Assembly (NCBI RefSeq): GCF_017348835.2
Contig: NZ_CP071375.1
Source of the DNA: Escherichia coli
GTDB taxonomy: Bacteria > Pseudomonadota > Gammaproteobacteria > Enterobacterales > Enterobacteriaceae
Length of the DNA stretch: 64,000 bases
Direction: 5' to 3' (one strand)
The notes under the pieces were generated by a model. That model ran no database searches and was not told the origin of the DNA. It worked only from the letters and a program-made list of their open reading frames with translations. Position 1 is the stretch's first letter. Each line of letters starts with the position of its first letter. Shown piece after piece: positions 28,477-61,024 of this stretch. Both the position numbers and the translations under genes were made by a program.

Positions 28477-28482
28477 TCCTTA

Positions 28483-28510
28483 CAGCTCCCGAAACTTCAT
28501 TCGGGAGCTG
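28483..28510. terminator. Hairpin between convergent metA and the dehydratase gene
   Basis: cagctcccgaa-acttca-ttcgggagctg, 11-bp stem. Confidence 0.6.
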
Positions 28511-28516
28511 TCTCTG

Positions 28517-29704
28517 TCAGGCCATCCGACAAGCTACTGGTGAATAATCGAAGGCTTTATAGGTCAGAACAAACTCTTTATGCCCCAGCCGCTCTGCGCT
28601 ACAAAGTTTACCGCTGCTGACTTCCTCAATGCAGTGCAACATATCGCTTGCGACATCATCAAGCGATGCACCTTCACTGATAATCCTGCCAGCATTAATA
28701 TCCATATCATCCGCCATATTGGCCCAGGTTTGTGGGTTGTTACAGACTTTAATCACTGGCGCAATTACGGAGCCGATCACTGAACCTCGTCCGGTGGTAA
28801 ACAAAATCATATGACATCCGGTAGCGATAAGTTCCATCGCTTCTGATGAGTCATTGATGTTGGGATAGCCGAAACGCGCTTCGCCGTCGGGAACCACATC
28901 CATCAGATACAGACCAGGGTAAGGGGCATGTTCTGTCGGGAGTAAAACGCCCTGAATAGGGCTATCGCCTGACTTTGTATAGGCACCCAGCGATTTTTCT
29001 TCTTGCGTGGTTAACCCGCCGACGGCGTTACCGTTAGAAAAACTGCCTAAACCCATTGTCGCGTAATAGCGTTTAGCTTTATCCATTGCTGCATCAATCG
29101 CCTCTCTGGCCGCAGGTGTCGCCGCTCGCGCCATCATGTGGCCTTCACAACCAATCAACTCGCCGCTCTCTTCAAAAATGCAGGTCGCGCCTTGTGCGAG
29201 GAGTCGATCAAACGCGCGACCTACGGCAGGATTGCCCGTAATGCCGCTGGTGCCGTCGGAACCGCCGCAAATCGTACCAATAACTAAATCACTGAACGCA
29301 ATCGGGCGAACCGCCACCTGCTTAATTTGCGCCAGCATCTCTGTGACACAAACTTTGCCCCGTTTGATGGTTTCTGTAGTTCCCTTATTTTCCTGGATAA
29401 CCAGCTTATGGCATGGGCGACCACTGGCGATGACATCTTCATAAAGTTTATCGCGATCAAAGTTTTCGCAGCCGAGGGCGATAATCAACACCGCACCAAC
29501 ATTGGGATGGGTCGCCAGTCCTTTTACCAGTCGGTAGCCGTAGTCCGTGGGGTAACAGCCGGAAAAACCAAAATACTGCACGTCTTCATTTGTGAAAGAC
29601 TCAGCGATCGCTTTGGCAACGTGGCTGGCGCATTCCACCATAAAGATGACTTGTACGCTGTTACGTATACCGACTCTGCCATCTTGTCTCATGTAACCCT
29701 GCAT
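28517..29704 (-). CDS. UxaA-family (altronate/galactarate-type) sugar-acid dehydratase, catalytic large subunit
   Basis: 395-aa ORF resembling the C-terminal catalytic part of altronate dehydratase; start ATG overlaps the upstream stop by 1 nt. Confidence 0.7.
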   Translation of the reverse strand: MQGYMRQDGRVGIRNSVQVIFMVECASHVAKAIAESFTNEDVQYFGFSGCYPTDYGYRLVKGLATHPNVGAVLIIALGCENFDRDKLYEDVIASGRPCHKLVIQENKGTTETIKRGKVCVTEMLAQIKQVAVRPIAFSDLVIGTICGGSDGTSGITGNPAVGRAFDRLLAQGATCIFEESGELIGCEGHMMARAATPAAREAIDAAMDKAKRYYATMGLGSFSNGNAVGGLTTQEEKSLGAYTKSGDSPIQGVLLPTEHAPYPGLYLMDVVPDGEARFGYPNINDSSEAMELIATGCHMILFTTGRGSVIGSVIAPVIKVCNNPQTWANMADDMDINAGRIISEGASLDDVASDMLHCIEEVSSGKLCSAERLGHKEFVLTYKAFDYSPVACRMA

Positions 29705-30024
29705 CAGGCCTCTCCTGCTGGCTCATAGCCCGCATTATCATGGTGGAATACGGCGATATAATCGCTGTTCAGGTTATGGGAATGGATATGCTCGCCAATA
29801 GGGATAGCCTGACTGGCAGAGCCAATGCCTGCGCCATATTTACGAACTTTATCGCCCTGACATAACGTTTCGATTGCCAGCTTATGCCCAAGAGCAACGT
29901 AGCTTTGTGCCACAAATTCACCACCGTCATAGTGGACGCGATCGCCTTGCTGAATATCTTCCAGGGCGACAACGCAGTTATCGAGTTTGTGTAATAGCAG
30001 AGCGCGTTTATTCATGTTCACCAA
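29704..30024 (-). CDS. SAF-domain small subunit of a UxaA-family dehydratase
   Basis: 106-aa ORF resembling the N-terminal SAF domain of UxaA-type dehydratases; TGATG overlap with the large subunit. Confidence 0.65.
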   Translation of the reverse strand: MVNMNKRALLLHKLDNCVVALEDIQQGDRVHYDGGEFVAQSYVALGHKLAIETLCQGDKVRKYGAGIGSASQAIPIGEHIHSHNLNSDYIAVFHHDNAGYEPAGEA

Positions 30025-30071
30025 CTCTCCTGGTTGTGGGGATACAGGCGACCCACAGGCCGCCCGACTGT

Positions 30072-30836
30072 TTAGAAACCGATCAGCGCGCCGCCATCGA
30101 CAATCAGAACCTGACCGCTAACGAAACCGGCAGCATCAGAAGCCAGATAGGTTGCAGCCCAGCCGATATCTTCTGGTTTGCCGAATTTTTTCATCGGTGT
30201 ACGACCAAGAATTTTATTTTTACGCTCATCGTCACCCTCAATGGCTTTGCGCAGCATTGGCGTATCAATCCAGCCCGGAGCGACGCCGTTAACGCGGATC
30301 CCTGCGCCAGAAAGTTCGGTTGCCATGCCATGAATCAGCCCGAGGTAGGCAGACTTCGCGGCAGCATAGCCGGTGACATAAGGTTGACCGAGGAACGATG
30401 TCATTGAGGCGGTAAAAAGCACACAGGCATTGCCATGCTGTTTCATATGAGGGACCAGCGAGCGAGTCAGAGCGAACGCGCCAACGACATGGACATCAAG
30501 AACCGATTCAAAATCAGCGACGCTCATCTCTTCGATCGGTTTTTTACAGTGATTTCCGGCGTTATTGACCAGAATATCGATCTGATTATGCTGGCTCAGA
30601 AGGCCGTCTACCCAACTTTCCGTCTCGTCAGTGTGGGCCACATTGAACTGGCTCCAGGATGCATTTGGCCCCAGCGACTCGGCAGCGTTTTTGGCAGCTT
30701 CGCCATTGAGATCGGCAATGATGACTTTTGCGCCACAGGCGATCATGCATTTAGCCATTGCATAGCCCAGGCCACTGGCGGAACCGGTGATCAGGGCAGT
30801 TTTATTTTCCAGTGAAAAGGGGTTATTCATCGTCAT
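30072..30836 (-). CDS. Short-chain dehydrogenase/reductase (SDR) oxidoreductase
   Basis: 254-aa ORF with TGSASGLG cofactor motif and YAAAK catalytic pair. Confidence 0.8.
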   Translation of the reverse strand: MTMNNPFSLENKTALITGSASGLGYAMAKCMIACGAKVIIADLNGEAAKNAAESLGPNASWSQFNVAHTDETESWVDGLLSQHNQIDILVNNAGNHCKKPIEEMSVADFESVLDVHVVGAFALTRSLVPHMKQHGNACVLFTASMTSFLGQPYVTGYAAAKSAYLGLIHGMATELSGAGIRVNGVAPGWIDTPMLRKAIEGDDERKNKILGRTPMKKFGKPEDIGWAATYLASDAAGFVSGQVLIVDGGALIGF

Positions 30837-30861
30837 GATTTTTTTCTCGTCAGATAAAGGG

Positions 30862-31875
30862 TTAGAGGTCGATTAAAATTTTGGTGAATGCGCCGGGATC
30901 GGCGGCCCAGTCGCTGAACGCCCGATCGGCAGTATCAATCGGGTAGTGCGCGGAAATAATTAGCTCAATGGGGTAGCACTGCTTTTCCATTAAAGAGAGA
31001 ACTGCTCTGAAATCGGCAACGGTGGCGTTGCGGGAACCACGGATATCCAGCTCTTTCATGAGGAAGCGCGCGCTCTCATAATTCACCGGTTTTTTCGCAT
31101 AGCCGACGTACACCACGCGCCCGCAGAAGGCAGCCAGCTCGACTGCCTGCTCGATGGTTTTATCCAGGCCAATGGCTTCAATCACCACCGCAGGACCGCG
31201 GTCTTCGTTCAGTTTCGCCAGGATCTCAGCAACATTTTCGCGTGCGCTGTTGATATACCTTTCGGCACCACATGCCTTCGCTACCGCCTGCTTACGATCG
31301 TCGATATCAATGGCTACCACGCGACCGCCCATCGCGTTAGCTGCTGCAATAGCGCCAAGACCAATCACGCCGCAGCCCATAACGACGACCCATTCGCCAA
31401 CATTGATTTGCGCCCGGCGCGCAGCGTGAAGACCAACGGCTAATGGTTCGACTAACGCCAGTTCGTCACTGGAAAGGGAATTACAGACAATGACTTTATT
31501 GGCCGGAATAGACAGCAGCGGCACCATACCGCCCTGGCGCTGAACGCCAAGAGTCTGGTTGTTTTTACAGGCATTCGGGCGACCGCTCAGACAGGAACTG
31601 CAATGACCGCATTCGGTACAGGGCAGAACAACAACACGATCGCCTTCCAGAATATGTTTAACCTGGCTGCCTGTTTGCAGGATCTTGCCGCCGATTTCAT
31701 GACCGGGAATGCAAGGATACTGCGTGAGGGGATTTAGCCCGCGCCAGGTATTTAAATCTGAACCGCATAAACCAACTCGTTCAACACGAATTAATACATG
31801 GTCGGCTGGGCAATCAGGTTCGGCGATATCAATAAATCGCGTTACGGAACCTTTATCAATGGCTAACGCTTTCAT
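30862..31875 (-). CDS. Zinc-dependent medium-chain alcohol/polyol dehydrogenase
   Basis: Start taken at MKALAIDKG (337 aa); GHEIGG zinc motif, structural-zinc Cys cluster CTECGHCSSC, GCGVIG Rossmann motif. Confidence 0.8.
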   Translation of the reverse strand: MKALAIDKGSVTRFIDIAEPDCPADHVLIRVERVGLCGSDLNTWRGLNPLTQYPCIPGHEIGGKILQTGSQVKHILEGDRVVVLPCTECGHCSSCLSGRPNACKNNQTLGVQRQGGMVPLLSIPANKVIVCNSLSSDELALVEPLAVGLHAARRAQINVGEWVVVMGCGVIGLGAIAAANAMGGRVVAIDIDDRKQAVAKACGAERYINSARENVAEILAKLNEDRGPAVVIEAIGLDKTIEQAVELAAFCGRVVYVGYAKKPVNYESARFLMKELDIRGSRNATVADFRAVLSLMEKQCYPIELIISAHYPIDTADRAFSDWAADPGAFTKILIDL

Positions 31876-31888
31876 ATAAAAACCTTTT

Positions 31889-33187
31889 TTAAAGTGAATC
31901 GGATGAAATAACAGAATCGGTATTTTTAATATTTCTCTTAATAGGTTTAACGCCAAAGGCTACCCCAAGAGCGCCGATTACCCCAATGGCACCCGCAAGA
32001 ATAAATGCAGCAATAAAACTATTGGTATATTGGACAATGAAGCCAGTTAAAATAGGGGCGATAATTCCCGAGGTGTTTGCCAGTAAATGTACAAAACCAC
32101 CAACGCCACCGACTTTATCAGGGGAAATATTATCGGAGACAATTGCCCACGGCGCGGCAGCGGCGAGATACATAAAGAAGATACCCATTGCCATTAACAT
32201 CACTGCATTTGTTACGGAGGCAACCTGACCCGCAAAACTGATACAAATAGCCGAGAGAATTAACCCTCCAACGATAATTAACTTTCTGGCCAGCAGCAGA
32301 TTTTTGGTTTTGCGATATAACCAGTCTGAAAACATACCGCCAATAGCAATACCAACGCTACCAATAATCCACGGAATGGCCGAGGCAATACTCATCTCCT
32401 GAATATTTAGTCCCTTTTCCATTGAGAGATAACTTGGAAACCAGGTTAAAAAGAAATACAGAATATAGTTAATAGAGAAGAATGCCAGGCCAGTGAACAG
32501 AACTATAGGCTGGGTCAGGTAGAAGATAAAAGGCACTTTGGCTGAGTCAGTGCCGTAGCCTGGCGCGCCTTTTTGCGCCTCATCATACTCGGCAATTTCT
32601 TCTTTCGATGTATGAGGGTTATTATGTGGACGATCGGTAAATGCTTTAATCCAGAAAAATGTCCAGATAAAACCCAGAGACATTAAAATGATAAAAGCGA
32701 TGCGCCAGTTCCACATCACCACGATTGCGCCAACAATCGGACCCGCAATCGCACCACCCAAAGGGTTGCCCGCGTTTGCGATGCCCACAGCTCTGGCGCG
32801 CTGATCAAGCGGAACCCAGTTACTAATGCATTTGTTGATCGTCGTACTAATCGGGCCTTCGCTCATCCCGAATAATACGCGCACGATAAACAAAGATATA
32901 TAACCGAAAGCGAGGCCAGTCAGCCCACAGAACAATGACCAGGAAAGCATTGCAATGGCAAAAACTTTGCGGGGACCATAGAGATCGGATAAATAGCCAC
33001 CAACAAAGTTAAATAATGCATAACCAAAGAAAAAACTACTCAGCATAATCCCAACTTCGGCTGGGTTTAGGCCAAAATGATCTTTGATATAGGGCATTGC
33101 CACAGAAAATGCCGCACGATCGAGATAATTAATTATTCCAGCGATAAACAGCAGGAATAATATTTTGGAATGCTGTCGTTTGAACAT
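31889..33187 (-). CDS. MFS transporter, anion:cation symporter type (hexuronate/aldonate-like)
   Basis: 432-aa ORF with many hydrophobic segments and NYLDRAAFSVAMP motif near the N-terminus; AT-rich coding sequence. Confidence 0.75.
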   Translation of the reverse strand: MFKRQHSKILFLLFIAGIINYLDRAAFSVAMPYIKDHFGLNPAEVGIMLSSFFFGYALFNFVGGYLSDLYGPRKVFAIAMLSWSLFCGLTGLAFGYISLFIVRVLFGMSEGPISTTINKCISNWVPLDQRARAVGIANAGNPLGGAIAGPIVGAIVVMWNWRIAFIILMSLGFIWTFFWIKAFTDRPHNNPHTSKEEIAEYDEAQKGAPGYGTDSAKVPFIFYLTQPIVLFTGLAFFSINYILYFFLTWFPSYLSMEKGLNIQEMSIASAIPWIIGSVGIAIGGMFSDWLYRKTKNLLLARKLIIVGGLILSAICISFAGQVASVTNAVMLMAMGIFFMYLAAAAPWAIVSDNISPDKVGGVGGFVHLLANTSGIIAPILTGFIVQYTNSFIAAFILAGAIGVIGALGVAFGVKPIKRNIKNTDSVISSDSL

Positions 33188-33254
33188 AGCAAGTCCTGCA
33201 TAAATAATTTATGTGAATAGTGGTAGGGTAGAATTAATAATTTAAATATATGAT

Positions 33255-33941
33255 CTACATCACACCGAACTTTTCAAATACTTCCACGGTGCTCATGCCA
33301 TTTTTTATCGCCAGACGAACATCACTTTCGGTTGCGACTTTATTCAGTGCTTCAGCTATTACCTCCTTTTCAACTTCTTTTGGAATAACTAAAAGACCAT
33401 CGCAGTCGCCATAAATAATATCGCCGGGATTTATCACCACACCGCAAACTTCAACCGGGACGTTATAATCAATGACTTTTCCTCGCGGCCCCTGATCCTG
33501 AGCATAAGTACCATAACTAAATGTGGGGAAATTAATATCAAGAATTTCTTTAGAGTCCCGGACATAACCATCAAGAACAGCACCGGCGGCCTTAAGATGC
33601 ATAGCGCGAGTGGACATTAAACCGCCCCATAATGCGTAACGTAGCGAACTTCCTGTCGCAATATAAACATCGTTTTCTTTCAGCGAATCCAGCGCCTCAA
33701 ACATAATACCGAACGGTTTTTTACCAATTGCTGTATTCCCCGACGATGAGTGCAACTCATAAACATCGGCTTCAAGAACAGGCATAGCCCGCCCTGCGAG
33801 AACCATACTGGAGTGTAAAGGTTTCATTGAAGGAGAAACAAACTGATGCAAATATCCTTTGGTATCAAGAATATCGCCAACAACGGCAGTAAATAACTGC
33901 GTACGCATCAACTGAAAAAGTTCCTTGTCATTGTTCCACAT
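33255..33941 (-). CDS. RraA-like / class II aldolase-decarboxylase family protein
   Basis: 228-aa ORF; length and sequence resemble the RraA/HMG-CHA aldolase fold rather than 161-aa RraA itself. Confidence 0.6.
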   Translation of the reverse strand: MWNNDKELFQLMRTQLFTAVVGDILDTKGYLHQFVSPSMKPLHSSMVLAGRAMPVLEADVYELHSSSGNTAIGKKPFGIMFEALDSLKENDVYIATGSSLRYALWGGLMSTRAMHLKAAGAVLDGYVRDSKEILDINFPTFSYGTYAQDQGPRGKVIDYNVPVEVCGVVINPGDIIYGDCDGLLVIPKEVEKEVIAEALNKVATESDVRLAIKNGMSTVEVFEKFGVM

Positions 33942-33992
33942 AATTAACGATCCTGAATTGTAGTGAGGAGGTGTGAACAGAGACTAGAGTAG

Positions 33993-34025
33993 AACCTATA
34001 AACCTGTCAAACAGGTTTATAGGTT
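33993..34025. promoter_or_regulatory. Perfect 15-bp inverted repeat, candidate operator in the divergent promoter region
   Basis: AACCTATAAACCTGT-caa-ACAGGTTTATAGGTT, 52 bp upstream of the RraA-like gene start and ~210 bp upstream of the GntR-type regulator gene. Confidence 0.55.
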
Positions 34026-34236
34026 GAAGAGTGTAAACGATCGCACTCTGCGAGCCTCTTCACAATTTCAGCTATGGTTTACTGCGATCGCTTTTCAACC
34101 GGATGCGTCCTATCGCTGCTACGCCTTTTTCGGTAACATACGAACCAAAGGTAGGAGGGATTATCTGTAACGCTATGATTTTTAAGTTTTAGATAAGATA
34201 TGTTGCGGCTGAAACAGGTAATATCTGCTCGGTAAA

Positions 34237-34965
34237 TTGATGGCAAGAATGATGACAACGAAAATTCAGCTAGAAAGTAACACGCTCTCAGCCCAGGTAC
34301 GAGACTACATACTGTCGTTAATTGCGCGGCAAAAGTTAACCGTCGGGATGCCGGTGCCCAGTGAAATGCAACTTACCCAGGAACTTGGCGTCAGTAAGGG
34401 CGTTGTCCGTGAGGCCTATCGTTCACTTGCCGCCCTTGGAATACTCGAAACCAAAAGTGGTAAAGTGCCACGCATTAAAGCCTTTGATTCTAGCGTGTTG
34501 CAGGTCATTTTTTCCTTTGCGACGCTGACCGAGCAGGTCAGTTCTTCACAGATACTTGCCGCCAGACGTTGGCTGGAAGCCGGATGCGTACAAATGGCGG
34601 CGCTCAATGGAGATGAAGAGGATTTTGCTGCGCTGAAGCAAGAAATGTCGTTGATACGCGAAGAGTTTTCTGACACCGAGCGTTTCCTGGAACATGATTT
34701 AAATTTCCATTTGCTGTTATCGCAGGCATCTAAAAATCCTTTATTCAGCATTCTGTTGCAGGCTTTACACACCCAGTTAACCCACTCAATGCGAGCGGGT
34801 CTGGAAGCACAACGCAATAATCATGAATATGAGCGTGGGATAATTGCATTGCACCAACGTGTTTGTGACTGTGTTTGTAATCGCGATGCTGAAGGTGCGA
34901 TGAAAGCCATGGATGAGCATTTCAACCTCTCTTCTGATGCTTTAAACAATCAGTCTCCTCTTTAA
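34237..34965 (+). CDS. GntR/FadR-family transcriptional regulator
   Basis: 242-aa ORF with N-terminal winged-HTH (QLTQELGVSKGVVREAYRSLAALGILE) and a C-terminal helical ligand domain; divergent from the catabolic genes. Confidence 0.8.
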   Translation: MMARMMTTKIQLESNTLSAQVRDYILSLIARQKLTVGMPVPSEMQLTQELGVSKGVVREAYRSLAALGILETKSGKVPRIKAFDSSVLQVIFSFATLTEQVSSSQILAARRWLEAGCVQMAALNGDEEDFAALKQEMSLIREEFSDTERFLEHDLNFHLLLSQASKNPLFSILLQALHTQLTHSMRAGLEAQRNNHEYERGIIALHQRVCDCVCNRDAEGAMKAMDEHFNLSSDALNNQSPL

Positions 34966-34989
34966 TTAAGCGATTCAGCACCTTATCTC

Positions 34990-35013
34990 AGGCACCTTCG
35001 GGTGCCTTTTTTG
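34990..35013 (+). terminator. Rho-independent terminator after the GntR-type regulator gene
   Basis: aggcacc-ttcg-ggtgcct followed by TTTTTT. Confidence 0.8.
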
Positions 35014-35213
35014 TACCCGAAACGCCCTTCATAAAGTGAATGTTTTTTATTTATATTGTTATCAATAAGTTATCAAGTATTTTTAATTAAAATGGAAATT
35101 GTTTTTGATTTTGCATTTTAAATGAGTAGTCTTAGTTGTGCTGAACGAAAAGCGCACAACGATCCTTCGTTCACAGTGGGGAAGTTTTCGGATCCATGAC
35201 GAGGAGCTGCACG

Positions 35214-38332: not shown

Positions 38333-42224
<3,892 letters not shown>

Positions 42225-47248: not shown

Positions 47249-47276
47249 TTCACAAATCTGTCACTTTTCCTTACAA

Positions 47277-50110: not shown

Positions 50111-50258
50111 CACTTTGCCACCAATTTGAGCGCCCCTTAAGGCGCTGATATTTTTTATGCTTCTCGTGCAAATTGTGCTGCTTCAGCAATCAGCAGCTCA
50201 TCCGGTCGCGAAGTTGCTGGTGCGACCAGCCAGCGACATGCAGAGTTGAGTAACGCGA

Positions 50259-51488: not shown

Positions 51489-51539
51489 AAACCACCTCAT
51501 GTTGAGCGATGGCCCCGGCAGTCGTGCCGGGGCGAAGAA

Positions 51540-52394
51540 TCAGGACAGGAAGCCCAGCGCATTGCCGATAATCCCTAAGCCAAACAGGGCGAAAATCAGC
51601 CATACCGGGTTAATTTTTTTGTTGAGCAGACGAACCATTAGTAGCGTCAGACCGAGCGCCAGCAAACCAGGGCAAAGTTGGTCGAGAATGTTCTGCACGG
51701 TCATGATGACGGTGGAGCCATCGGCGGCATGCGTTTGTGAAACCACCAACGGTACGTTGATTGACGTCCATTTGGTGACCAGCACGCCCATCACAAACAG
51801 TCCGAGAATCGACGCGCCTTCGGTGAGTTTTTGCAGCAAATTACCGCCCATATCGCTGACGATATTCACCCCTTTGCGAAAGCCGAGCTGGAGGCCATAC
51901 CACTTCATCGCCAGACGCACCGCGTTGAAAATAAAGAAGAACAGCAGCGGGCCGAGAATGTTGCCCGAAAGTGCCAGAGATGCGCCGAGCGCGGCGGTAA
52001 TCGGGCGCAGCGTTCCCCAGACCAGTGGATCGCCAACCCCTGCCAATGGTCCCATCAGACCGACTTTGATGCCGTTAATGGTGCCGTCATCAATTTCCGC
52101 GCCGTTGGCCCGCGCCTCTTCCATGGCGGCAGTGACGCCGATGACCGGGCCACATACGGCTGGCGTGGTATTGAAGAACACCAGGTGTCGCCTGAGCGCC
52201 GCAACCTGATCCTCTTTTAATGGGTAAAGTCGCTTGATGGCGGGGATCATGTCGTAGCAAAAGCCCAGCCCGTGAATACGTTCAAAGTTAAAGGACGCCT
52301 GTTGCAGGTTGGAGCGCAGAAACATGCTCACCAGATCGCTGCGTGTAATTTTTCTCTGTTCCATGATGGCTCCGTTAATCGTCAAGTTGGTCAA
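51540..52394 (-). CDS. sorM: PTS mannose/sorbose-family EIID component
   Basis: 284-aa hydrophobic ORF; start may be the internal MEQRK at 52364. Confidence 0.8.
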   Translation of the reverse strand: MTNLTINGAIMEQRKITRSDLVSMFLRSNLQQASFNFERIHGLGFCYDMIPAIKRLYPLKEDQVAALRRHLVFFNTTPAVCGPVIGVTAAMEEARANGAEIDDGTINGIKVGLMGPLAGVGDPLVWGTLRPITAALGASLALSGNILGPLLFFFIFNAVRLAMKWYGLQLGFRKGVNIVSDMGGNLLQKLTEGASILGLFVMGVLVTKWTSINVPLVVSQTHAADGSTVIMTVQNILDQLCPGLLALGLTLLMVRLLNKKINPVWLIFALFGLGIIGNALGFLS

Positions 52395-53172
52395 GGGCGG
52401 TGGAAGCGGGGGCCTGGAGCTGAGGTTCAGCTTTACGCCACTGTGGATTTAACTGGATGTAGACCAGGGCCATGATCACGCCGACGCCACCGAACGCCAG
52501 CAGACTGAGATCGAGGTAGCCACCTGCGAGGAAACCGAGGAAAAAGAAAGGCATCAAATATTTCACGCCCATCATACGTAGCACCATGGCGTAACCGACC
52601 ACCACGATAAAACCGCCAGCAATCTGTAGTCCTCGGGTCACAAATTCGGGAATGGCGTTTAACATATTGCTCACCATATCGGCGCTGACGAACAGCGAGA
52701 CAATCAGTGCCGGAACAGCAACGCGCAGCGCCTGCACGCCAAGCGCGGAGACATGCAGAATATCGAGAGTGCGAAACCGTGCTTCTTCCGCTGCTTTATC
52801 CGCCGCGTGCTGGAACACTACGGTGATGGTACGTGCAAACACCGTCAGCACCTGGCCTGCCGCAGCCACAGGCAACGCGATGGCGATTCCGGTGGCGATG
52901 CTTTGCTGACCAACGATAACCAGAATGGCGGAGATTATGCTGGCGAGTGCAGAATCCGGAGATTGCGCCGCGCCGACGTTCATCCAGCCGAGAGCTATCA
53001 ATTCCAGCGTACCACCGAGTATTATTCCGGTTTTTAAATCACCGAGAATTAAACCAATCACCGTACAGGCAATTAACGGGCGATGAGTCTGGAATTCATC
53101 CAGCACGCTGCCCATTCCGGCAATACAGGAAAAAAGAAATATAGCAATAATTTGTAGGGTACTTATTTCCAT
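52375..53172 (-). CDS. sorA: PTS mannose/sorbose-family EIIC component
   Basis: 265-aa integral membrane ORF MEISTLQIIAIFLFSCIAGMGSVLDEF... Confidence 0.8.
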   Translation of the reverse strand: MEISTLQIIAIFLFSCIAGMGSVLDEFQTHRPLIACTVIGLILGDLKTGIILGGTLELIALGWMNVGAAQSPDSALASIISAILVIVGQQSIATGIAIALPVAAAGQVLTVFARTITVVFQHAADKAAEEARFRTLDILHVSALGVQALRVAVPALIVSLFVSADMVSNMLNAIPEFVTRGLQIAGGFIVVVGYAMVLRMMGVKYLMPFFFLGFLAGGYLDLSLLAFGGVGVIMALVYIQLNPQWRKAEPQLQAPASTALDQLDD

Positions 53173-53237
53173 GATTTGTCACCTTTTAAGTGTCGTCATC
53201 CCTGCCTGTTAAAGCATATGTACACAGGCGCTATTAT

Positions 53238-53732
53238 TTAATTTGCGATTAACTGTTCGTTTATTTTGTCGATAATATTGATTGAGGGATCTGACGCTAC
53301 GACGCGTAAATCCAGTATGACGCCAAGATTATTTAACTCATGAAATGCGTTAATATCATCATCATCTAATGAAACCGCTTTGGTTAACTGTTTTTTACCG
53401 GGCCGCCAGGCCATGCCGCCAATATTCAGGGTGCCTATTTTTACCCCCTGGCGAACCATCGCTAAGGCATCCTGTGGGCGAGTGAAAAGATAAAAAACGG
53501 TTTCGTCCTGATATTGCGGGTTGTGATAAACCGCGACGGCTTTTTCAATATTGACCACGTTAACCTTCATTCCCGGTGGCGCAGCCTGACGCAATAATGT
53601 CCGGCGAACTTCATCGTTATAAACTTCGTCATTGCAGATAATAATGCGCTGGGCGTTAGCCACTTTCGACCAGACGGTAGTGACCTGACCGTGGATCAGG
53701 CGGTCATCAATGCGGGCGAGCGTAATGTTCAT
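53238..53732 (-). CDS. sorB: PTS mannose/sorbose-family EIIB component
   Basis: 164-aa ORF with the IIB-Man signature ARIDDRLIHGQV (phospho-His). Confidence 0.85.
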   Translation of the reverse strand: MNITLARIDDRLIHGQVTTVWSKVANAQRIIICNDEVYNDEVRRTLLRQAAPPGMKVNVVNIEKAVAVYHNPQYQDETVFYLFTRPQDALAMVRQGVKIGTLNIGGMAWRPGKKQLTKAVSLDDDDINAFHELNNLGVILDLRVVASDPSINIIDKINEQLIAN

Positions 53733-54139
53733 CAGAAATCCTCCTCTGCCGTTGCCACCTGTCTCCAGACGACGCAGGATTGCTTTGCGATTTGCGTCAG
53801 GTGTTCACACAGTTCATCAACATTCATGCTGTCCTGGTTATCAACCAGTTCGAGCGCCAGCGGCAGAGAAAGGCCGCTGATTACCCGCAAACGAGGATTG
53901 CGCATCGCAAGCATCGCTGCCGCATTCCACGGGCTGCCGCACTGTAAATCCACGGCAATCAGCCACTCATCTTGATTGTGAATGCTTACTAACTTTTCCA
54001 GCTTTACCACAATGTCTCCGGCGTTTTCACCGGGCACAAATTCAACGGCTTCAACATTGGCGTTGCCGTAAACCATCTGAACCGATTCCAGCATGGCGCA
54101 AGCTAATTTGCCGTGGGCACAAAAAATGGCGTTGACCAT
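53732..54139 (-). CDS. sorF: PTS mannose/sorbose-family EIIA component
   Basis: 135-aa ORF MVNAIFCAHGKLA... (IIA-Man N-terminal His); 1-nt overlap with sorB. Confidence 0.8.
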   Translation of the reverse strand: MVNAIFCAHGKLACAMLESVQMVYGNANVEAVEFVPGENAGDIVVKLEKLVSIHNQDEWLIAVDLQCGSPWNAAAMLAMRNPRLRVISGLSLPLALELVDNQDSMNVDELCEHLTQIAKQSCVVWRQVATAEEDF

Positions 54140-54148
54140 AAAGCCTCC

Positions 54149-54955
54149 TTATCCGCGCGTTTTGCCGCCCGCAATGTTAGTGGTTACTCCGGTGATGTAG
54201 CTGGCGCGTTCAGACAACAGATAACAAACAAAATCAGCGACTTCTGCTAATCTACCGGCGCGCCCAATAGGAATGGCGTTTTTGGTATAGCCTTCACGCA
54301 GCTGCTCGACGGTGATATTGCGCGTCCACGCCAGCGCTTCTTCATATTCCGGCGTGCGCAGTCCTGTTTTTTCCAGAATCCCCGGCGCGATACCGACCAC
54401 ACGGATACCGTGTTTACCCAATTCTTTCGACCAGGAGCGCGTGAAGCTATTGAGCGCGGCTTTGGTAGCGGCGTAACAGCTTTGTCCTTCTGAGCCTTCC
54501 AGCCCACTTTCTGAGGAAACATTCACAATCACGCCATCATGTTGTTTGACCATCTGTCGCGCCACCGCCTGCGACATCAGAAAAACACCTTTCTGGTTGA
54601 TATTGACCATTTTTTCGAATGCAGCTTCGTTGAGTTCATACTGCCCGGCAGGCGCTTTCTCATCGACCAGCAGACGCGGGAAATTGACCCCGGCGTTATT
54701 GACCAGACCGTCGATGCGACCAAAACGCTGGATAATTTCCGCTACCGTATGATTTACCTCTTTGGCGCTGGAAATATCGGTCGGCCAAAACTGATAGCCT
54801 TTATGACCTTCATATTGTCCATCGCCACCGTGAATATCGACCATCTGTACATTCGCGCCTTGTGCTAATAATTCCTCTACAATCGCCAGACCAATACCGG
54901 ATGCGCCGCCGGTGACGATAATGATTTTATCCTGCAAATTTAACCACGTTTGCAT
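54149..54955 (-). CDS. sorD: SDR dehydrogenase, sorbitol-6-phosphate dehydrogenase-like
   Basis: 268-aa ORF with TGGASGIG and YAATK motifs. Confidence 0.78.
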   Translation of the reverse strand: MQTWLNLQDKIIIVTGGASGIGLAIVEELLAQGANVQMVDIHGGDGQYEGHKGYQFWPTDISSAKEVNHTVAEIIQRFGRIDGLVNNAGVNFPRLLVDEKAPAGQYELNEAAFEKMVNINQKGVFLMSQAVARQMVKQHDGVIVNVSSESGLEGSEGQSCYAATKAALNSFTRSWSKELGKHGIRVVGIAPGILEKTGLRTPEYEEALAWTRNITVEQLREGYTKNAIPIGRAGRLAEVADFVCYLLSERASYITGVTTNIAGGKTRG

Positions 54956-55024
54956 AACAGACTCCTGATTTTAGATAATAGGGACCCGCCGTAATTTTTA
55001 TTACGATAAACATCGGGAAGATTT

Positions 55025-55972
55025 TTATTTCAGTAATAGTTCAGCTGTGCTGCTATTCGTTACCAGACAATTAATATATTTTCCACGCAGTGCACCAATA
55101 ATTCCGCTGTATTTTTCTTCACTCATGGCAATGCCAATGGAATATCGTGCCTGCTTTAATTTATTCATTTCGATAGAGAGTGTTTTTTCGCTCATATTCG
55201 TTTCAACCATTGCGCCGTGAATATCAAAAAAGCGCGAGCAAATATCGCCAGCAACCTGGCGGGCATTCAGGTCGTCACTCTCTTCACCACCATAAAACGC
55301 ATGCCAGTTAGCGCCGTCGCGAATGGCCGGTGAGCCAATTCCCACCAGGGCGACATCCAGATTATCCCAGTAGGCAGAGATGGTTTTAAAGTGCTGAGAC
55401 TGCATGATCCCATTACGAATTAAGGGGTTATCCAGCAGAGCCGGAAAATCCGCGAGATGCGATTCCCCTTTCAGCTTCGCTGCCGCGCTGTAGGTTAATG
55501 TGTTTACGTGATAGCGGCTTTCGAGTTTACCGGACGGTCCGCCAATAATTGGCACGCAGATTAACTGCCGCGATTGCCCCGCTTGCGGCAAGTTTTCAAC
55601 CAGTGCGCTCACCGCGCGACCCCAGGAAAAACCGACAATATCGCCAGGCTCCAGCAAGCGATCCAGCAGTTGCGCGCCGTGTAACCCCATCATCGCCAGT
55701 TGAGTCTCTTCATCCTCATCATTTCCCGACACCACCACAACGTCTTTCAGGCCAAACTTTTGCTTCAGTTGCTGCTCGAGCCAGAGATTTTCGTTGTAGT
55801 CATAGTTGATGGCGATGGTGACAATTCCCTGATCGCGGCCTCGTTTAAGCAAGCGGCTGATGGTGGTGCGGTAAATACCCAGTTCGCGCGCGATTTGCGC
55901 CTGCGTCATATCCTGTTCGTAATAGAGTTGGGCAATCTTCACAATCAAACGGATATCGTCACTGTTTTCCAT
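55025..55972 (-). CDS. sorC: SorC-family transcriptional regulator
   Basis: Start taken at MENSDDIRL with AGGAGG RBS (315 aa); N-terminal HTH (MTQAQIARELGIYRTTISRLL) plus sugar-binding domain. Confidence 0.8.
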   Translation of the reverse strand: MENSDDIRLIVKIAQLYYEQDMTQAQIARELGIYRTTISRLLKRGRDQGIVTIAINYDYNENLWLEQQLKQKFGLKDVVVVSGNDEDEETQLAMMGLHGAQLLDRLLEPGDIVGFSWGRAVSALVENLPQAGQSRQLICVPIIGGPSGKLESRYHVNTLTYSAAAKLKGESHLADFPALLDNPLIRNGIMQSQHFKTISAYWDNLDVALVGIGSPAIRDGANWHAFYGGEESDDLNARQVAGDICSRFFDIHGAMVETNMSEKTLSIEMNKLKQARYSIGIAMSEEKYSGIIGALRGKYINCLVTNSSTAELLLK

Positions 55973-56319
55973 TGCCGCCTCCTGGTTCTGCACATTTGTG
56001 CAAATACGCTTTCTCACCGCTTGATCTGATATAACCCCATCATGATGGCCTTTCAAAGCGATTTTTCACTCTTTGCATGGGGAGAAATAGCGCTTTCTCT
56101 TGCACATTTGTTTCTCTGCGCAGTAGTCATCAGCACAGGTGTGCAGCGATTCGTAATATGTTGATTATCCTTATTTTGCCAGGCAAATTTGCATTGTACT
56201 TCCGGAGACACTTTTGTGATAAAAGGCGTGGCAGATCACATTTAATTTCGACGTTGCCGCATAACTCTGTTTTTCCCTGCTAAGAGGTACGGTATATTCC
56301 GCGTTTTACAGGAGAATTT

Positions 56320-57192
56320 ATGCTGCCCGACTCATCAGTCCGTTTAAATAAATACATCAGCGAAAGCGGAATTTGCTCACGCCGCGAAGCGGATCGCTAT
56401 ATCGAGCAAGGCAATGTGTTCCTTAATGGCAAGCGAGCCACCATTGGCGATCAGGTGAAACCCGGCGACGTTGTGAAAGTAAACGGTCAGTTGATTGAGC
56501 CTCGGGAAGCCGAAGATTTGGTACTTATCGCCTTGAACAAGCCCGTCGGTATTGTCAGCACCACCGAAGATGGCGAGCGCGATAACATTGTCGATTTCGT
56601 TAACCACAGCAAACGCGTGTTCCCGATTGGTCGTCTGGATAAAGATTCCCAGGGGCTGATTTTCCTCACCAACCACGGTGATCTGGTGAATAAGATCCTG
56701 CGTGCTGGCAATGATCATGAAAAAGAGTATTTGGTAACGGTCGATAAACCGATTACCGATGAATTTATTCGTGGTATGGGGGCGGGAGTGCCGATCCTCG
56801 GGACGGTGACGAAAAAGTGCAAAGTCAAAAAAGAAGCACCGTTTGTCTTCCGCATTACCCTGGTGCAGGGGTTGAACCGTCAGATCCGTCGCATGTGCGA
56901 GCACTTTGGTTACGAAGTGAAAAAGCTGGAACGTACGCGCATTATGAACGTCAGCTTAAGCGGCATTCCGCTGGGTGAGTGGCGCGATTTAACTGACGAT
57001 GAGTTAATCGACCTCTTTAAGCTCATCGAAAATTCCTCTTCCGAGGCAAAACCTAAAGCGAAGGCCAAACCGAAAACAGCGGGCATCAAACGTCCAGTCG
57101 TTAAGATGGAAAAAACGGCGGAAAAAGGCGGTCGCCCGGCGTCCAACGGTAAGCGTTTTACCTCGCCGGGGCGAAAAAAGAAGGGGCGCTAA
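56320..57192 (+). CDS. rluF: 23S rRNA pseudouridine synthase F
   Basis: 290-aa ORF with S4 domain and RsuA-type catalytic core; Lys/Ala-rich tail. Confidence 0.93.
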
Positions 57193-57465
57193 TCAGCGCC
57201 TGCCGCGCGTCGACGTATTTGCTGACCAGCTAAATGACGCTTCAGGATCCGGTTTATAAGCCTGCTTTTTCTTTAACTGGCGGGCTTTTTTCGCTTCAGC
57301 CTCACGCTCGACCATTAATTTATCGATGTACTCTTTCTTAATGCTGTTGGTTTCGGAGTTGGTCAGTACGCGACCATGCGCAATCCGCGCCCGATCCAGC
57401 AGTGTTTTAAGTTCACGTTGCTCGCGTTCAGTCATCTCTTTTTGAGTAATACGGGGGAGTGCCAT
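57193..57465 (-). CDS. yjbD: DUF3811-family small protein
   Basis: 90-aa ORF; its stop codon abuts the rluF stop codon. Confidence 0.85.
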   Translation of the reverse strand: MALPRITQKEMTEREQRELKTLLDRARIAHGRVLTNSETNSIKKEYIDKLMVEREAEAKKARQLKKKQAYKPDPEASFSWSANTSTRGRR

Positions 57466-57678
57466 GATGGTGCCCTCAGTGAGCCAGAGAGTTCAGTGTA
57501 CGGGAATTCGTTTGCGAGCAGAACTGATAATATTCCTTTGTTCTCTTCTTAAATATTTATCTTTCTTGATAATTGACGATAAATACAGATACAAATTTAG
57601 CGAAAAAATCTCCCCCTACAAACAACAATGATTTATTAAATCTTTATTTTTCATGTAATTAAAATTTTTTATCACTTC

Positions 57679-57694
57679 TGGCACGCTTCTCGCA
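57679..57694 (+). promoter_or_regulatory. Candidate sigma-54-type promoter ~300 nt upstream of the SPFH gene
   Basis: TGGCACGCTTCTCGCA with GG-N10-GC spacing; motif match only. Confidence 0.3.
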
Positions 57695-57993
57695 ATAACA
57701 CTTTTGCGTTGATACTGAATTACAAAGGGGGTTAAACCCCGTCGGCACACCAGGAACGGCCAGGCTGTTTTCCGGGCGTGTTCCGTCAGCCTTTGACGCC
57801 AATTACGGGTTCGATTCCCACATTCATTCCTGAAATGAATACTGGTTGTAACTTATTAAATAAAAAATGAGGGATTGCGCAGTCTGCGGTCCCCGATAAC
57901 GTCACCGATAAAGATGCCGGGTAACAGGCAAAAGGGAATTCCCCTGTCGCTTCGTGTCTGCTTCCGCGACGGCTATTAAGCAAGGAATAGATA

Positions 57994-59121
57994 ATGATTA
58001 AAAAAATAAGCGTAAGAAAAGATCAGCTGGCATTACTCTCCAGAAACGGCGATTACTACAAAGTGCTGCATGCAGGCGAGCATATTTTACCCTGGTTAAA
58101 TACCCCGGAAGTGTTGCTGATTACGCTGGATGGTAGCGAAGTTCCCGACGTGCTTGCGGATTATTTGCGCCGCTTTCAGCCTGATTGGGTGGAGAAATAT
58201 TGCCTGGTGGCAGACTTGTCGGAGACTGAAGCCGGGGTGTTGTATATGGACGGTATTTTGTTGGAGATCCTGCCGCCATCAACGCGTCGTTTGTACTGGC
58301 GTGTAGAGGATGATTTGACGCTGGTGCGGATGAATACGCAGCAAGTCCCGGTACAAACGGAGGTGATGAATGCGGTATTACAGCCACGGCGCAAAGGAGT
58401 TGTTAAAGGCCGCGATGCGATACTGACGGTGCAGGTTCCGGCCTGGCATGTAGGCGTGCTGAAAATCGATGGTGAAACGCAGGCGCTGTTACCGCCGGGG
58501 CTGACTGCGTACTGGAAAATAAATCATCTGGTTGAAGCTGAAGTTGTCGACACCCGCTTGCAGGTACTGGAAGTCAGCGGGCAAGAAATCTTAACGAAAG
58601 ATAAGGTCAATCTGCGGATTAATCTCGCCGCTAACTGGCGCTATAGCGATGTGTTGCTGGCATTTAGTCAGCTAACGAAGCCGATTGATCATTTGTATCG
58701 GGAATTACAATTTGCCCTGCGTGAAGCGGTAGGTACGCGCACACTGGATGAACTGCTGGAAGATAAACAGGTCATTGATGACGTTGTTAGCGAGCAGGTG
58801 AAACTACGCATGAAGCCGTTCGGTATGGAGATCGCTTCGTTAGGAGTAAAAGATATCGTCCTGCCTGGCGATATGAAAAATATTCTTGCGCAACTGGTAG
58901 AGGCGGAGAAATCCGCGCAGGCCAATGTGATTCGCCGACGTGAAGAAACGGCAGCGACGCGCTCGTTACTGAACACCGCCAAAGTCATGGAGAACAATCC
59001 GGTAGCGTTGCGTTTAAAAGAGCTGGAAACGCTGGAGAGAGTGGCTGAGCGGATTGATAACATCTCTGTATTTGGCGGTCTGGATCAGGTTCTGCATGGG
59101 TTGGTTAATATCAAAGGGTGA
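57994..59121 (+). CDS. SPFH/band-7 (stomatin-like) domain protein with an unassigned ~180-aa N-terminal region
   Basis: 375-aa ORF with RBS. C-terminal half (GQEILTKDKVNLRINLAANWRY...IASLGVKDIVLPGDMKNILAQLVEAEKSAQANVIRRRE...) is stomatin/prohibitin-like. No obvious transmembrane helix. Confidence 0.7.
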   Translation: MIKKISVRKDQLALLSRNGDYYKVLHAGEHILPWLNTPEVLLITLDGSEVPDVLADYLRRFQPDWVEKYCLVADLSETEAGVLYMDGILLEILPPSTRRLYWRVEDDLTLVRMNTQQVPVQTEVMNAVLQPRRKGVVKGRDAILTVQVPAWHVGVLKIDGETQALLPPGLTAYWKINHLVEAEVVDTRLQVLEVSGQEILTKDKVNLRINLAANWRYSDVLLAFSQLTKPIDHLYRELQFALREAVGTRTLDELLEDKQVIDDVVSEQVKLRMKPFGMEIASLGVKDIVLPGDMKNILAQLVEAEKSAQANVIRRREETAATRSLLNTAKVMENNPVALRLKELETLERVAERIDNISVFGGLDQVLHGLVNIKG

Positions 59122-59126
59122 GTAAC

Positions 59127-59918
59127 ATGCCATTAAATGGAGTCAGTGCTGCGATGCGCGAAAGGGTATCGCAGCAGTTAAAAGAAATTGAACGTCGCTA
59201 TGGCGTGAAAGTGCTGTACGCCTGCGAATCGGGGAGTCGCGGCTGGGGATTTGCTTCGCCCGACAGCGATTACGATGTGCGGTTTTTGTATGTCCATCCG
59301 CTGGAATGGTATCTGCGGGTAGAGGCACCACGCGATGTTATCGAACTGCCCATCGACGACGAGTTAGATGTTTCCGGTTGGGAATGGCGCAAAGCGCTGG
59401 GATTGCTGAAAGGTGCGAATCCCACGCTAATTGAATGGCTGGATTCACCGGTGGTCTATCAGCAAGATGAAGAGACGATAACGGCGCTTAAGGCAATGGT
59501 CCCAACGTGGTTTTCTCCGTTGCGTGCGCGCTGGCATTACTATTCGATGGCGCAGAAAAACTTCCGCGGATATTTGCAGGGCGATGAAGTTCGACTGAAA
59601 AAATACTTTTACGTGCTGCGTCCGTTGCTGGCCGTGCGTTGGGTTGAAGCGGGAAAAGGCGTACCGCCAATGCGTTTTTCCGAATTGCTGGCGGGAAGTG
59701 AGTTGGATGCGGCCTTACGCGCAGAAATAGATGAATTACTGGAACGTAAACAGCGTGCGGGTGAAGCGGAATATGGCCCACGCCGTCCATTGCTACATGC
59801 GTTTATCCATGCGGAACTGGCGCGTGGGGAAATTCCGCCTGTGTTACCGGATAGTAGAGAAGGGGACGTTAAGAAACTGGATAGCTTACTGTACCAGACG
59901 GTAATGCGCCGGGCGTGA
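59127..59918 (+). CDS. Pol-beta-superfamily nucleotidyltransferase
   Basis: 263 aa from ATG 59127 (a GTG at 59118 would overlap the upstream stop by 4 nt); motif GSRGWGFASPDSDYDV fits GS-x10-DhDh. Confidence 0.7.
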   Translation: MPLNGVSAAMRERVSQQLKEIERRYGVKVLYACESGSRGWGFASPDSDYDVRFLYVHPLEWYLRVEAPRDVIELPIDDELDVSGWEWRKALGLLKGANPTLIEWLDSPVVYQQDEETITALKAMVPTWFSPLRARWHYYSMAQKNFRGYLQGDEVRLKKYFYVLRPLLAVRWVEAGKGVPPMRFSELLAGSELDAALRAEIDELLERKQRAGEAEYGPRRPLLHAFIHAELARGEIPPVLPDSREGDVKKLDSLLYQTVMRRA

Positions 59919-59933
59919 TGCCCGGCGTTATTT
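59908..59933. terminator. Bidirectional terminator-like hairpin between convergent genes
   Basis: cgccgggc-gtga-gcccggcg followed by TTATTT; spans the nucleotidyltransferase stop codon. Confidence 0.6.
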
Positions 59934-59950
59934 CAGGTCATCAGCTTTTA

Positions 59951-60880
59951 TTATTCTTGTGCACTTCCGCTGATTTCATTTTGTATATGCGTTGCAATAT
60001 CGCAATTGGTTGCCGCTTGTGAACTAAATATCATCTTCTCACGCGAATACACCGCAAACTTATCTGCCAGGTTTGAAGCAAACACCTTGCTGGCATTTTC
60101 TGCTAGCAAATCGGTAACGATATCATGGTGATTTTTATCCACTTTGCGGGCGATATTTCCCGCCTCTTTGTCCTTATTATACCCTTCGTTGGTGCTTTCC
60201 CAGCTTAATGCCGCTGAGGTGGTTTTTATCATGACTTCTGTTCGGTAGCCTGCATCTTTGAGTTTTTTTAATGTTTGTAGCGGCGTAGCGGCATTACGAA
60301 ATGTTCCTTCGACAACAATATTGAGTTTATTGGCTATGGCCCTCTCTATTGCACGTTCGACCGTTTCGCCGGAAAATTTTGCCGTATGGGTAACAAAATC
60401 GTCGCCATAAGTTTGATATATATAATTAAAATCAGGGTGTAGAAATCTGAAATCATCACCATTAATAATCATTATATTATTCTTTGTTTCCCTTTTTGCT
60501 AATTCGATTAGGGCGGATTTTCCGGCTCCTGGTTGTCCACCTAAAACAAAACCAATGGGACTCTGCTGGGATGTGACGTCATGGTTTGTCAGACGCTGCC
60601 AAATAGAATCAAAAGACGCTTTATTTTCTGAATGCGCAGTATTATTAAATTCACGCTGATACTTTTTTCTGACCTGCTGGAGGCGTAACTTTCCCTGTGT
60701 AAAATCAACAAGTTCTGCTGGAGTGGAATAAAGATTGTCGCGATAGCTGACTAATTGTGATAGCTCATCGTCTGAGTCCTGAACTTGTGAGGAAAAACAA
60801 CTGTCGACGATATTTGATAAAAACGCGATGCACTGACTGGTGCCGTTTAAAAGTGCATCTTTTTCCATTAAAGTAGCCAT
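59951..60880 (-). CDS. Zeta-toxin-family kinase with ~100-aa N-terminal extension (EzeT-like)
   Basis: 309 aa from ATG 60880 with AGGAG RBS; Walker A GGQPGAGKS ~115 residues from the N-terminus; AT-rich codon usage. Confidence 0.65.
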   Translation of the reverse strand: MATLMEKDALLNGTSQCIAFLSNIVDSCFSSQVQDSDDELSQLVSYRDNLYSTPAELVDFTQGKLRLQQVRKKYQREFNNTAHSENKASFDSIWQRLTNHDVTSQQSPIGFVLGGQPGAGKSALIELAKRETKNNIMIINGDDFRFLHPDFNYIYQTYGDDFVTHTAKFSGETVERAIERAIANKLNIVVEGTFRNAATPLQTLKKLKDAGYRTEVMIKTTSAALSWESTNEGYNKDKEAGNIARKVDKNHHDIVTDLLAENASKVFASNLADKFAVYSREKMIFSSQAATNCDIATHIQNEISGSAQE

Positions 60881-60981
60881 TAACACTCCTGTTAAATAAT
60901 ATTTTTCGGTGATTATAATACTGTTCTACAGGAGTGATTTTGCATTTCAGATATTATTTAATCTATGTTTGCAGTGAGGAT

Positions 60982-61012
60982 GGCGTATAACAATTGGTGA
61001 GCGTTATACGCC
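60982..61012. promoter_or_regulatory. 10-bp perfect inverted repeat between lysC stop and the zeta-like gene
   Basis: GGCGTATAAC-11 nt-GTTATACGCC; no T-run follows on either strand. Confidence 0.4.
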
Positions 61013-61024
61013 AGTAGGAAAATA

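Follow-up and report, generated by a model that had tools for sequence, protein, structure and literature searches.

The sequence analysed here is a window of 64,000 nucleotides from the Escherichia coli contig NZ_CP071375.1 (assembly GCF_017348835.2), and it is essentially identical to the pig E. coli isolates PE164 (NZ_CP114128.1) and F2_81 (NZ_CP043542.1). Between positions 28477 and 61024 it carries three blocks of genes that vary among strains, one between metA and aceB (block 1), one between pepE and rluF (block 2) and one between yjbD and lysC (block 3). The gene map and gene names were taken from the Prokaryotic Genome Annotation Pipeline (PGAP) annotation of the identical record. It gives the order metA, the seven block-1 genes, aceBAK, espL4, iclR, metH, yjbB and pepE, and after pepE the sor operon, rluF, yjbD, a slipin gene, a gene for a nucleotidyltransferase of the Pol-beta superfamily, a zeta toxin gene and lysC. 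The limits of the blocks were set by exact alignment of alleles with an empty site, that of O114:H49 for metA-aceB and those of K-12 and EC17CM7 for the two remaining sites. Prevalence was counted over 5,426 complete E. coli genomes, among which blocks 1, 2 and 3 are carried by 2, 2865 and 1424 genomes, respectively. By what process are such blocks present in one strain and absent from another?

Block 1 (28479-34965, 6487 bp) stands in place of 18 bp of the empty metA-aceB spacer and is a predicted sugar-acid catabolic cluster of seven genes. On the minus strand are encoded the large subunit of a UxaA/galactarate-type dehydratase (28517-29704; Pfam GD_AH_C and GD_AH_second), whose NCBIfam match to galactarate dehydratase lies under the curated cut-off, the small subunit of the dehydratase (29704-30015; Pfam SAF; UxaA family hydrolase in PGAP), a short-chain dehydrogenase/reductase (SDR) family oxidoreductase (30072-30836; Pfam adh_short_C2), a zinc-dependent alcohol dehydrogenase family protein (30862-31875 in PGAP coordinates; Pfam ADH_N and ADH_zinc_N), a major facilitator superfamily (MFS) transporter (31889-33187; Pfam MFS_1) and an RraA-like protein (33255-33941; Pfam RraA-like). 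The last of these matches NCBIfam aldolase subfamilies below their cut-off and is probably an aldolase; its nearest relatives outside E. coli are 76-92% identical. The plus strand encodes a GntR/FadR-family regulator (34240-34965; Pfam GntR and FCD), whose stop codon is the final triplet of the block. Between the divergent rraA-like and gntR-like genes there is a perfect palindrome of 15 nt with a 3-nt spacer (33993-34025, 100% complementary), which is probably the operator of the GntR-type regulator. The GC content from the MFS gene to the gntR-like gene is 0.39-0.48, below that of the surroundings. At the other end, 3 nt inside the left junction, a hairpin with a 12-bp stem (28482-28511) lies between the convergent metA and uxaA-like genes; its folding energy is -21.5 kcal/mol (z -8.2) on one strand and -23 kcal/mol (z -8.8) on the other. 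It was not flagged in the terminator scan because it has no U-tract. A 4-nt TTAA near both junctions of block 1 was weighed as microhomology and dismissed as chance.

Block 2 (49969-56284, 6316 bp) stands in place of 86 bp of the K-12 pepE-rluF spacer and consists of the L-sorbose operon sorCDFBAME with debris at its left end. The debris includes a dispersed repeat of 170 bp with a pair of repetitive extragenic palindromic (REP) elements, of the bacterial interspersed mosaic element (BIME) type, which is a secondary insert (49969-50138, REPs at 50002-50031 and 50066-50098). It also includes a terminator-like hairpin (50129-50146) and, on the minus strand, what is left of the two ends of a shikimate-dehydrogenase-like gene (50139-50258), recognised by alignment to an eight-gene sor allele on contig L030. 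The operon itself is on the minus strand. It runs from sorE, the L-sorbose-1-phosphate reductase gene of PGAP (50259-51488; Pfam ADH_N and ADH_zinc_N), through components IID (51540-52364; Pfam EIID-AGA), IIC (52375-53172; Pfam EII-Sor), IIB (53238-53732; Pfam PTSIIB_sorb) and IIA (53732-54139; Pfam EIIA-man) of a sorbose phosphotransferase system (PTS), to a sorD-type SDR dehydrogenase (54149-54955; Pfam adh_short) and a SorC-family regulator (55025-55972; Pfam Sugar-bind with a helix-turn-helix domain). In 1992 Wehmeier, Nobelmann and Lengeler reportedly mapped the sor operon of Klebsiella and E. coli to the vicinity of metH and iclR. Block 2 resembles the known operon in gene order, in variable presence among E. 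coli strains and in domain content (SorC, SDR, mannose-family PTS IIA, IIB, IIC and IID, sorbose-1-phosphate reductase), from which its function is predicted, and it differs from the eight-gene form by the shikimate-dehydrogenase-like remnant and the REP-pair insert at the pepE end. Recently sor has been treated as a lineage-associated trait in E. coli (PMC12817954).

Block 3 (57596-61024, 3429 bp) stands in place of 122 bp of the K-12 yjbD-lysC spacer and is made of a slipin-RlaP operon and a convergent ezeT gene. The operon, on the plus strand, encodes a slipin (SPFH/Band 7) family protein (57994-59121; Pfam Band_7) and a Pol-beta nucleotidyltransferase of the RlaP family (59127-59918; Pfam RlaP, E 1e-96); RlaP enzymes are RNA-ligase-associated nucleotidyltransferases (PMC12776372). 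On the minus strand lies the gene of an EzeT-type zeta toxin (59951-60880), in which a kinase domain (Pfam Zeta_toxin, residues 102-282 of 309) follows an N-terminal extension. The protein matches the PezT and zeta structures with E-values of 3e-31 and 1e-26 and is 89% identical to the common E. coli allele, and the GC content of its gene is 0.39-0.41, lower than that of the surroundings. Just past the stop codon of lysC, in sequence specific to block 3, there is a hairpin with a 12-bp stem on the minus strand (60981-61013, -15.7 kcal/mol, z -6.8). Within E. coli the slipin-RlaP and EzeT genes (57994-60880) diverge two- to fivefold faster than the flanking genes.

EzeT is a zeta toxin of E. 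coli in which toxin and a cis-acting antitoxin are fused into a single polypeptide (Rocker and Meinhart 2015, as described in PMC4826407 and PMC10532202), and it is located next to lysC (PMC10532202). The protein of the window is like EzeT in being a zeta/PezT-type kinase that is extended by about 90 residues at its N terminus and has no separate antitoxin gene, and in being encoded next to lysC, at a distance of 144 bp. The likeness is to EzeT (WP_000212693.1) as described and located in the literature, and the toxicity, that of a UDP-N-acetylglucosamine kinase which the N-terminal domain quenches, is predicted. Unlike EzeT as described, the gene of the window lies in a three-gene block together with the slipin-RlaP operon; a functional link between this pair and EzeT is not described in the literature found. 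PADLOC recognised no defence system among the block-3 proteins and EspL4, the sole match being a weak one of the zeta-like protein to the candidate PDC-M04B (E 0.0012).

Do the blocks carry the means of their own transfer? A preliminary description of this sequence had seen in them no mobility genes, insertion sequence (IS) ends, tRNA attachment site or direct repeats, and this is borne out. No integrase, transposase or pseudogene is annotated by PGAP inside the three blocks. All Pfam domains in the 17 coding sequences of the blocks are metabolic, transport or regulatory ones or those of SPFH, RlaP and zeta-toxin proteins, and none is that of a recombinase. Among the intergenic open frames of the blocks, the ten longest gave no mobility match and nothing relevant in Pfam. 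These intergenic stretches are at most 400 bp long, which leaves no room for a decayed gene. There is no tRNA or tmRNA target at the blocks, the sole tRNA of the window being the tRNA-Glu at 23049 within the rrnE operon, and Rfam found no RNA family within any block. For each block the longest direct or inverted match between its two junctions was compared with shuffled controls; the matches are merely 7-9 nt, while the controls have a mean of 7.4 nt and a maximum of 11-13 nt. The repeat search gave nothing that crosses a block junction. Integrase remnants and target-site duplications at the junctions, which the same description had named as signs against its reading, were not found by exact alignment, nor was an integrase remnant found in the intergenic frames; terminal inverted repeats and flanking IS copies were likewise not found at any block by exact alignment and repeat search.

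The preliminary description had further placed terminator hairpins or REP clusters beside all three blocks. For the hairpins this stands at blocks 1 and 3, each with a strong one at one junction; for the REPs it does not, since they touch block 2 only. No REP element was found at the right junction of block 2 or anywhere in blocks 1 and 3, and the further REPs of the 28477-61024 range sit in the core spacers aceA-aceK and yjbB-pepE. A terminator-like hairpin at 34990-35007 also lies in core sequence. At one of its junctions, every block shows either a strong hairpin or a pair of REPs at a distance of no more than a few dozen nucleotides. Each block also substitutes for a short unrelated filler rather than being simply added to the spacer. 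The K-12 fillers of 86 bp and 122 bp were compared with the filled alleles, Citrobacter and Raoultella, and they gave just chance matches of 9-13 nt, barring the conserved yjbD-proximal spacer. As a separate observation, the cluster of three REPs between aceA and aceK (38173-38304) matches Rfam naRNA4, a REP-derived nucleoid-associated RNA.

The clearest record of transfer is found around block 1. The divergence of its flanks was measured against three independent E. coli references, and breakpoints were located by maximum chi-square with 1000 permutations. yjaB and most of metA are about 1% diverged from the references, while the last 291 bp of metA are 8.2-9.3% diverged. The right-hand spacer next to the block is 14.9% diverged (13/87 positions, three references) and the divergence then falls back to 1.3-2.7%; outside the tract it is 0.8-2.7% overall. 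The tract is bounded by breakpoints at 28188 and 35053, which are identical for all three references. The observed statistic was reached in 0/1000 permutations, and Fisher p-values for divergence inside against outside the tract range from 6e-12 to 6e-6. Its left arm (28188-28478, plus strand) consists of a donor-type 3' end of metA and 2 further nt, and its right arm (34966-35053, plus strand) is donor-type as well and holds the conserved terminator of the metA side (34990-35007). The presence of donor-type core sequence to the left and to the right of the block is the mark of a double crossover in flanking homology. Across the block-1 flanks the best non-carrier complete genome is just 96.8% identical, whereas window positions 1-20000 find relatives at 99.0%.

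The block is also present in a second E. coli background, in the draft assemblies L016 and L017, with 10 differences in 6487 bp (99.85% identity). In these assemblies the difference from the window is 2.8% in aceB and aceA and 4.4% in the yjaB region. Their right-hand crossover falls farther into the aceB side than that of the window. The Logan contig L011 has the whole cluster at 82% identity, with ends that reach metA and the aceB-side spacer, which suggests that the cluster has long been resident at this junction in some related lineage. The evidence from sequence comparison supports block 1 as a recent import of about 6.9 kb (28188-35053), whose donor would be about 8-9% diverged from E. 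coli and would already have had the cluster at metA-aceB. The cluster is not confined to this place. About 660 E. coli genomes have a related one in the abrB-gltA interval (L012/L013, 9024-16829), where a tripartite ATP-independent periplasmic (TRAP) transporter replaces the MFS transporter and the RraA-like protein is 77% identical to that of block 1. Another, with an extra gene of the enolase superfamily, was found in an enterobacterial contig. Clusters of the block-1 type were thus found in three unrelated chromosomal contexts, all without mobility genes.

Block 2 has another history. Filled sor sites (2865) and K-12-type empty sites (2557) together cover 5422 of the 5426 genomes, all but 4. 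The empty alleles have a common junction and filler sequence (2557 genomes at a coverage of at least 80%), that is, about 47% of E. coli share one sor deletion allele. Which state is the older? On a Raoultella contig the order is pepE, the shikimate-dehydrogenase-like gene, sorE to sorC, rluF and yjbD. Its nucleotide identity to the window is 75-86% in sor, compared with 79% in pepE, 79.6% in rluF, 79% in yjbD and 78.9% in lysC. Since sor is as diverged as the flanking genes, the operon is ancestral and has diverged together with its neighbours, so that empty E. coli sites represent loss. These comparisons support the view that block 2 is ancestral at pepE-rluF and that the variable event is loss of the operon. 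The same spacer is empty in C. koseri and holds a different gene (DUF1722) in C. rodentium. The eight-gene sor form is kept in 177 E. coli genomes and in Raoultella, and relative to it (L030) the allele of the window has a 701-bp internal deletion in the shikimate-dehydrogenase-like gene. Every E. coli genome, with or without sor, has at least 40 copies of the REP-pair repeat that lies at the left end; at this place it is missing in the eight-gene allele and in Raoultella. As it is missing in the older allele, the REP insert came after the operon and did not cause the polymorphism. For this reason a REP-mediated origin of block 2 was rejected.

At yjbD-lysC, block 3 is filled in 1424 genomes, empty in 3757 and in other states in about 245, and the empty alleles again have a common junction and filler (3757 genomes at a coverage of at least 80%). 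Within E. coli its alleles diverge by 5.4% in slipin, 9.1% in rlaP and 10.6% in ezeT, compared with 1-3% in the flanks. An Escherichia lineage that is about 5% diverged holds both sor and block 3 at the same junctions. These divergences support block 3 as an old Escherichia polymorphism with fast-diverging alleles. The cargo of this spacer differs among genera, being an SBF-family transporter in C. koseri and Raoultella and the gene series SBF-rtcR-rtcB-rlaP in C. rodentium. The RlaP that follows rtcB in C. rodentium is 84% identical in amino acids to the RlaP of the window. Remnants of the C. rodentium cargo (SBF, rtcR, rtcB) were sought inside block 3, and rlaP alone is common to both. E. 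coli PapRG-06-5 has an extra DeoR-HAD-PTS module beside block 3 at this site.

Blocks 2 and 3 are parted by a core segment of only 1311 bp (56285-57595), with rluF (56320-57192) on the plus strand and yjbD (57193-57465) on the minus strand. Are the two blocks inherited together? Among the 5,426 genomes, 711 have both, 2154 sor only, 713 block 3 only, and 1848 neither or another state. Under independence 752 genomes with both blocks would be expected. The linkage r2 across about 1.3 kb is 0.0012, a value obtained from a non-random and clonally structured sample, which repeated independent loss could produce as well. All four states are found in single strains: neither block in K-12, block 3 only in EC17CM7, sor only in O157:H7 and Nissle, and both in the window. 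Single-nucleotide polymorphisms (SNPs) within a few bases of each junction follow the filled or empty state, with recombinant exceptions such as contig L030, where block 3 is present yet the left flank is of the empty type. The near-zero linkage is suggestive of recombination between sor and block 3 in the rluF-yjbD segment. Note that K-12 and some other strains have an element of 132 bp between rluF and yjbD (57192/57193; L003, 6355-6486) that is missing from the window and gives rise to two length classes of empty-site matches.

Taken together, it is highly likely that the blocks are ordinary chromosomal segments in long-lived variable spots between core genes, exchanged by homologous recombination in the flanking sequence. 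Incoming chromosomal DNA, entering perhaps by transduction or conjugation, would cross over twice within the flanking core sequence and so take the place of the resident segment. The crossover may be the work of housekeeping recombination of the RecA type, with a presumed dependence on RecA, and presence, absence and allele type would in this way move between lineages. The preliminary description had called the blocks strain-variable, in agreement with the counts given above, and had preferred gain or loss by recombination over site-specific integration. This preference is upheld, with the refinements described for each block, by the tract around block 1, its second background, the low r2 and the junction SNPs. 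It had also suggested looking for alternative cargo at the same junctions, and such cargo was found at yjbD-lysC, pepE-rluF and metA-aceB. Homologous recombination accounts for the spread of the blocks, not for their first arrival.

Several points weigh against exchange by homologous recombination as the explanation for all three blocks. At blocks 2 and 3 the evidence is at the level of the population and includes no mapped, discrete tract of recombination, with the caution on r2 noted above. A donor scan with the RraA-like protein of block 1 returned only relatives of 33-44% identity in metagenome-assembled genomes of Bacillota and pointed to no donor species. The yjbD-lysC site is not closed to mobile elements, as a Mu-like prophage or IS1 occurs there in rare strains; these insertions interrupt existing alleles and are secondary. 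Lastly, the empty alleles hold 18, 86 or 122 bp without counterpart in the filled allele. With filler in every empty allele, neither state can have come cleanly from the other, and exchange in the flanks does not account for the founding events.

Could the present distribution have arisen by vertical descent alone, with the segments deleted many times independently and never exchanged laterally? Loss clearly contributes, given that sor is ancestral and that blocks 2 and 3 are both present in the diverged Escherichia lineage. However, one junction and one filler in all sampled empty alleles (2557 and 3757 genomes) indicate a single deletion allele that spread, block 1 keeps an identity of 99.85% between two backgrounds that differ by about 3-4% in the flanks, and its donor-type flanks cannot come from deletion. 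Descent without exchange is therefore very unlikely. For the founding insertions, an unrecognised mechanism acting in trans might have placed cargo at hairpin-bearing 3' ends of core genes. The hairpins and REPs at the junctions, the unrelated filler and the three contexts of the block-1-type cluster leave room for such a mechanism, which we regard as quite improbable.

Another possibility is that the blocks are decayed integrative islands, which entered by site-specific integration and later lost the integrase and the attachment repeats. The lower GC content of ezeT and of the MFS-to-GntR part of block 1 is in keeping with this, as is the patchy presence. Then what traces should be left? No integrase or recombinase domain is seen in coding sequences or intergenic frames, there is no room for a decayed gene in the short intergenic space, no tRNA or tmRNA target is at hand and the junction repeats do not exceed chance. 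Moreover, the block edges meet a stop codon (34965) and a hairpin 3 nt off the junction, sor keeps its synteny in Raoultella and is equally diverged there, and the donor-type core sequence around block 1 is predicted by homologous exchange, not by site-specific insertion. Such an origin is very unlikely. Transposition, whether of REP/BIME elements by a REP-associated tyrosine transposase (RAYT) or of a composite IS transposon whose IS copies have since been lost, is very unlikely, because the multi-copy REP-pair repeat exactly at the left block-2 junction is a later arrival that the older eight-gene allele and Raoultella do not have, REPs are absent from the right block-2 junction and from blocks 1 and 3, terminal inverted repeats and target duplications are lacking, and the IS1 and Mu-like insertions at yjbD-lysC in a few strains, which might also speak for it, are rare, secondary and within existing alleles.

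Exchange by flanking homologous recombination is a pattern already well documented, and sor and EzeT are individually known; the loci are new examples of it. Many hotspots have no recognisable mobile elements, their flanking core genes show an excess of homologous recombination, and double recombination has been proposed for them (Oliveira et al. 2017, PMC5635113). In E. coli, gain and loss occur between the same pairs of core genes (Touchon et al. 2009, PMC2617782). The three blocks are like these hotspots in that the same pair of core genes encloses variable cargo in every strain, with no integrase, transposase or tRNA target, in that a recombination signal is found in the flanking core (as a tract for block 1), and in that other strains or genera have alternative cargo. 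Unlike the hotspots of PMC5635113, they are small spots of three to eight genes, probably 'coldspots' by the statistical definition of that paper, and sor is an ancestral operon being lost, not cargo transferred in. Integrase-bearing islands linked to tRNA genes and the defence-island hotspots of E. coli (Hochhauser et al. 2023, PMC10121019) likewise have strain-variable cargo at fixed chromosomal positions, and the blocks differ from them in having no integrase, tRNA or tmRNA, attachment repeats or defence system recognised by PADLOC. No description of block 1 at metA-aceB was found in the literature; it is a further example of the same known kind.

What the region offers is a worked example, in which one stretch of 33 kb shows three routes of gene-content change without local mobile elements. 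These are a recent import from a diverged relative with both crossovers mapped, the loss of an ancestral operon, whose deletion allele is now in about half of the species, and an old polymorphism that includes a toxin-antitoxin gene. It gives a caution that a strain-specific block is not always an "insertion", and it shows that two sites of variable presence separated by 1.3 kb can lack statistical linkage in E. coli. The knowledge of mechanisms is unchanged by these findings.

Other variable spots were observed in and near the window. The espL4/arpA-like gene (40038-42224, minus strand) encodes a ShET2 N-terminal domain and ankyrin repeats, has a very low GC content of 0.33-0.40 and shares 32 bp with the 3' end of aceK. 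C. koseri, where aceK adjoins iclR, does not have this gene, which makes a fourth foreign-looking segment without mobility genes. The metH-yjbB spacer of Nissle 1917 (L032, 3386-4198; window equivalent 47249-47467) has two small hypothetical genes that are missing from the window. The Escherichia lineage of about 5% divergence (L033/L034, 1425-3334) has no intact set of the exopolysaccharide genes yjbEFGH between pgi and psiE, the genes being either absent or in fragments. A further spot that varies in presence and has no mobility genes is yjaA (26500-26883), which the window and K-12 have and Combat11I9 and O145:H28 RM12761 do not; in these two strains yjaB directly follows the 5S rRNA gene. 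The rrnE spacer (23049-23124) holds tRNA-Glu in the window and in Combat11I9, and tRNA-Ile and tRNA-Ala in O145:H28 RM12761, which suggests a swap of spacer types between rRNA operons.

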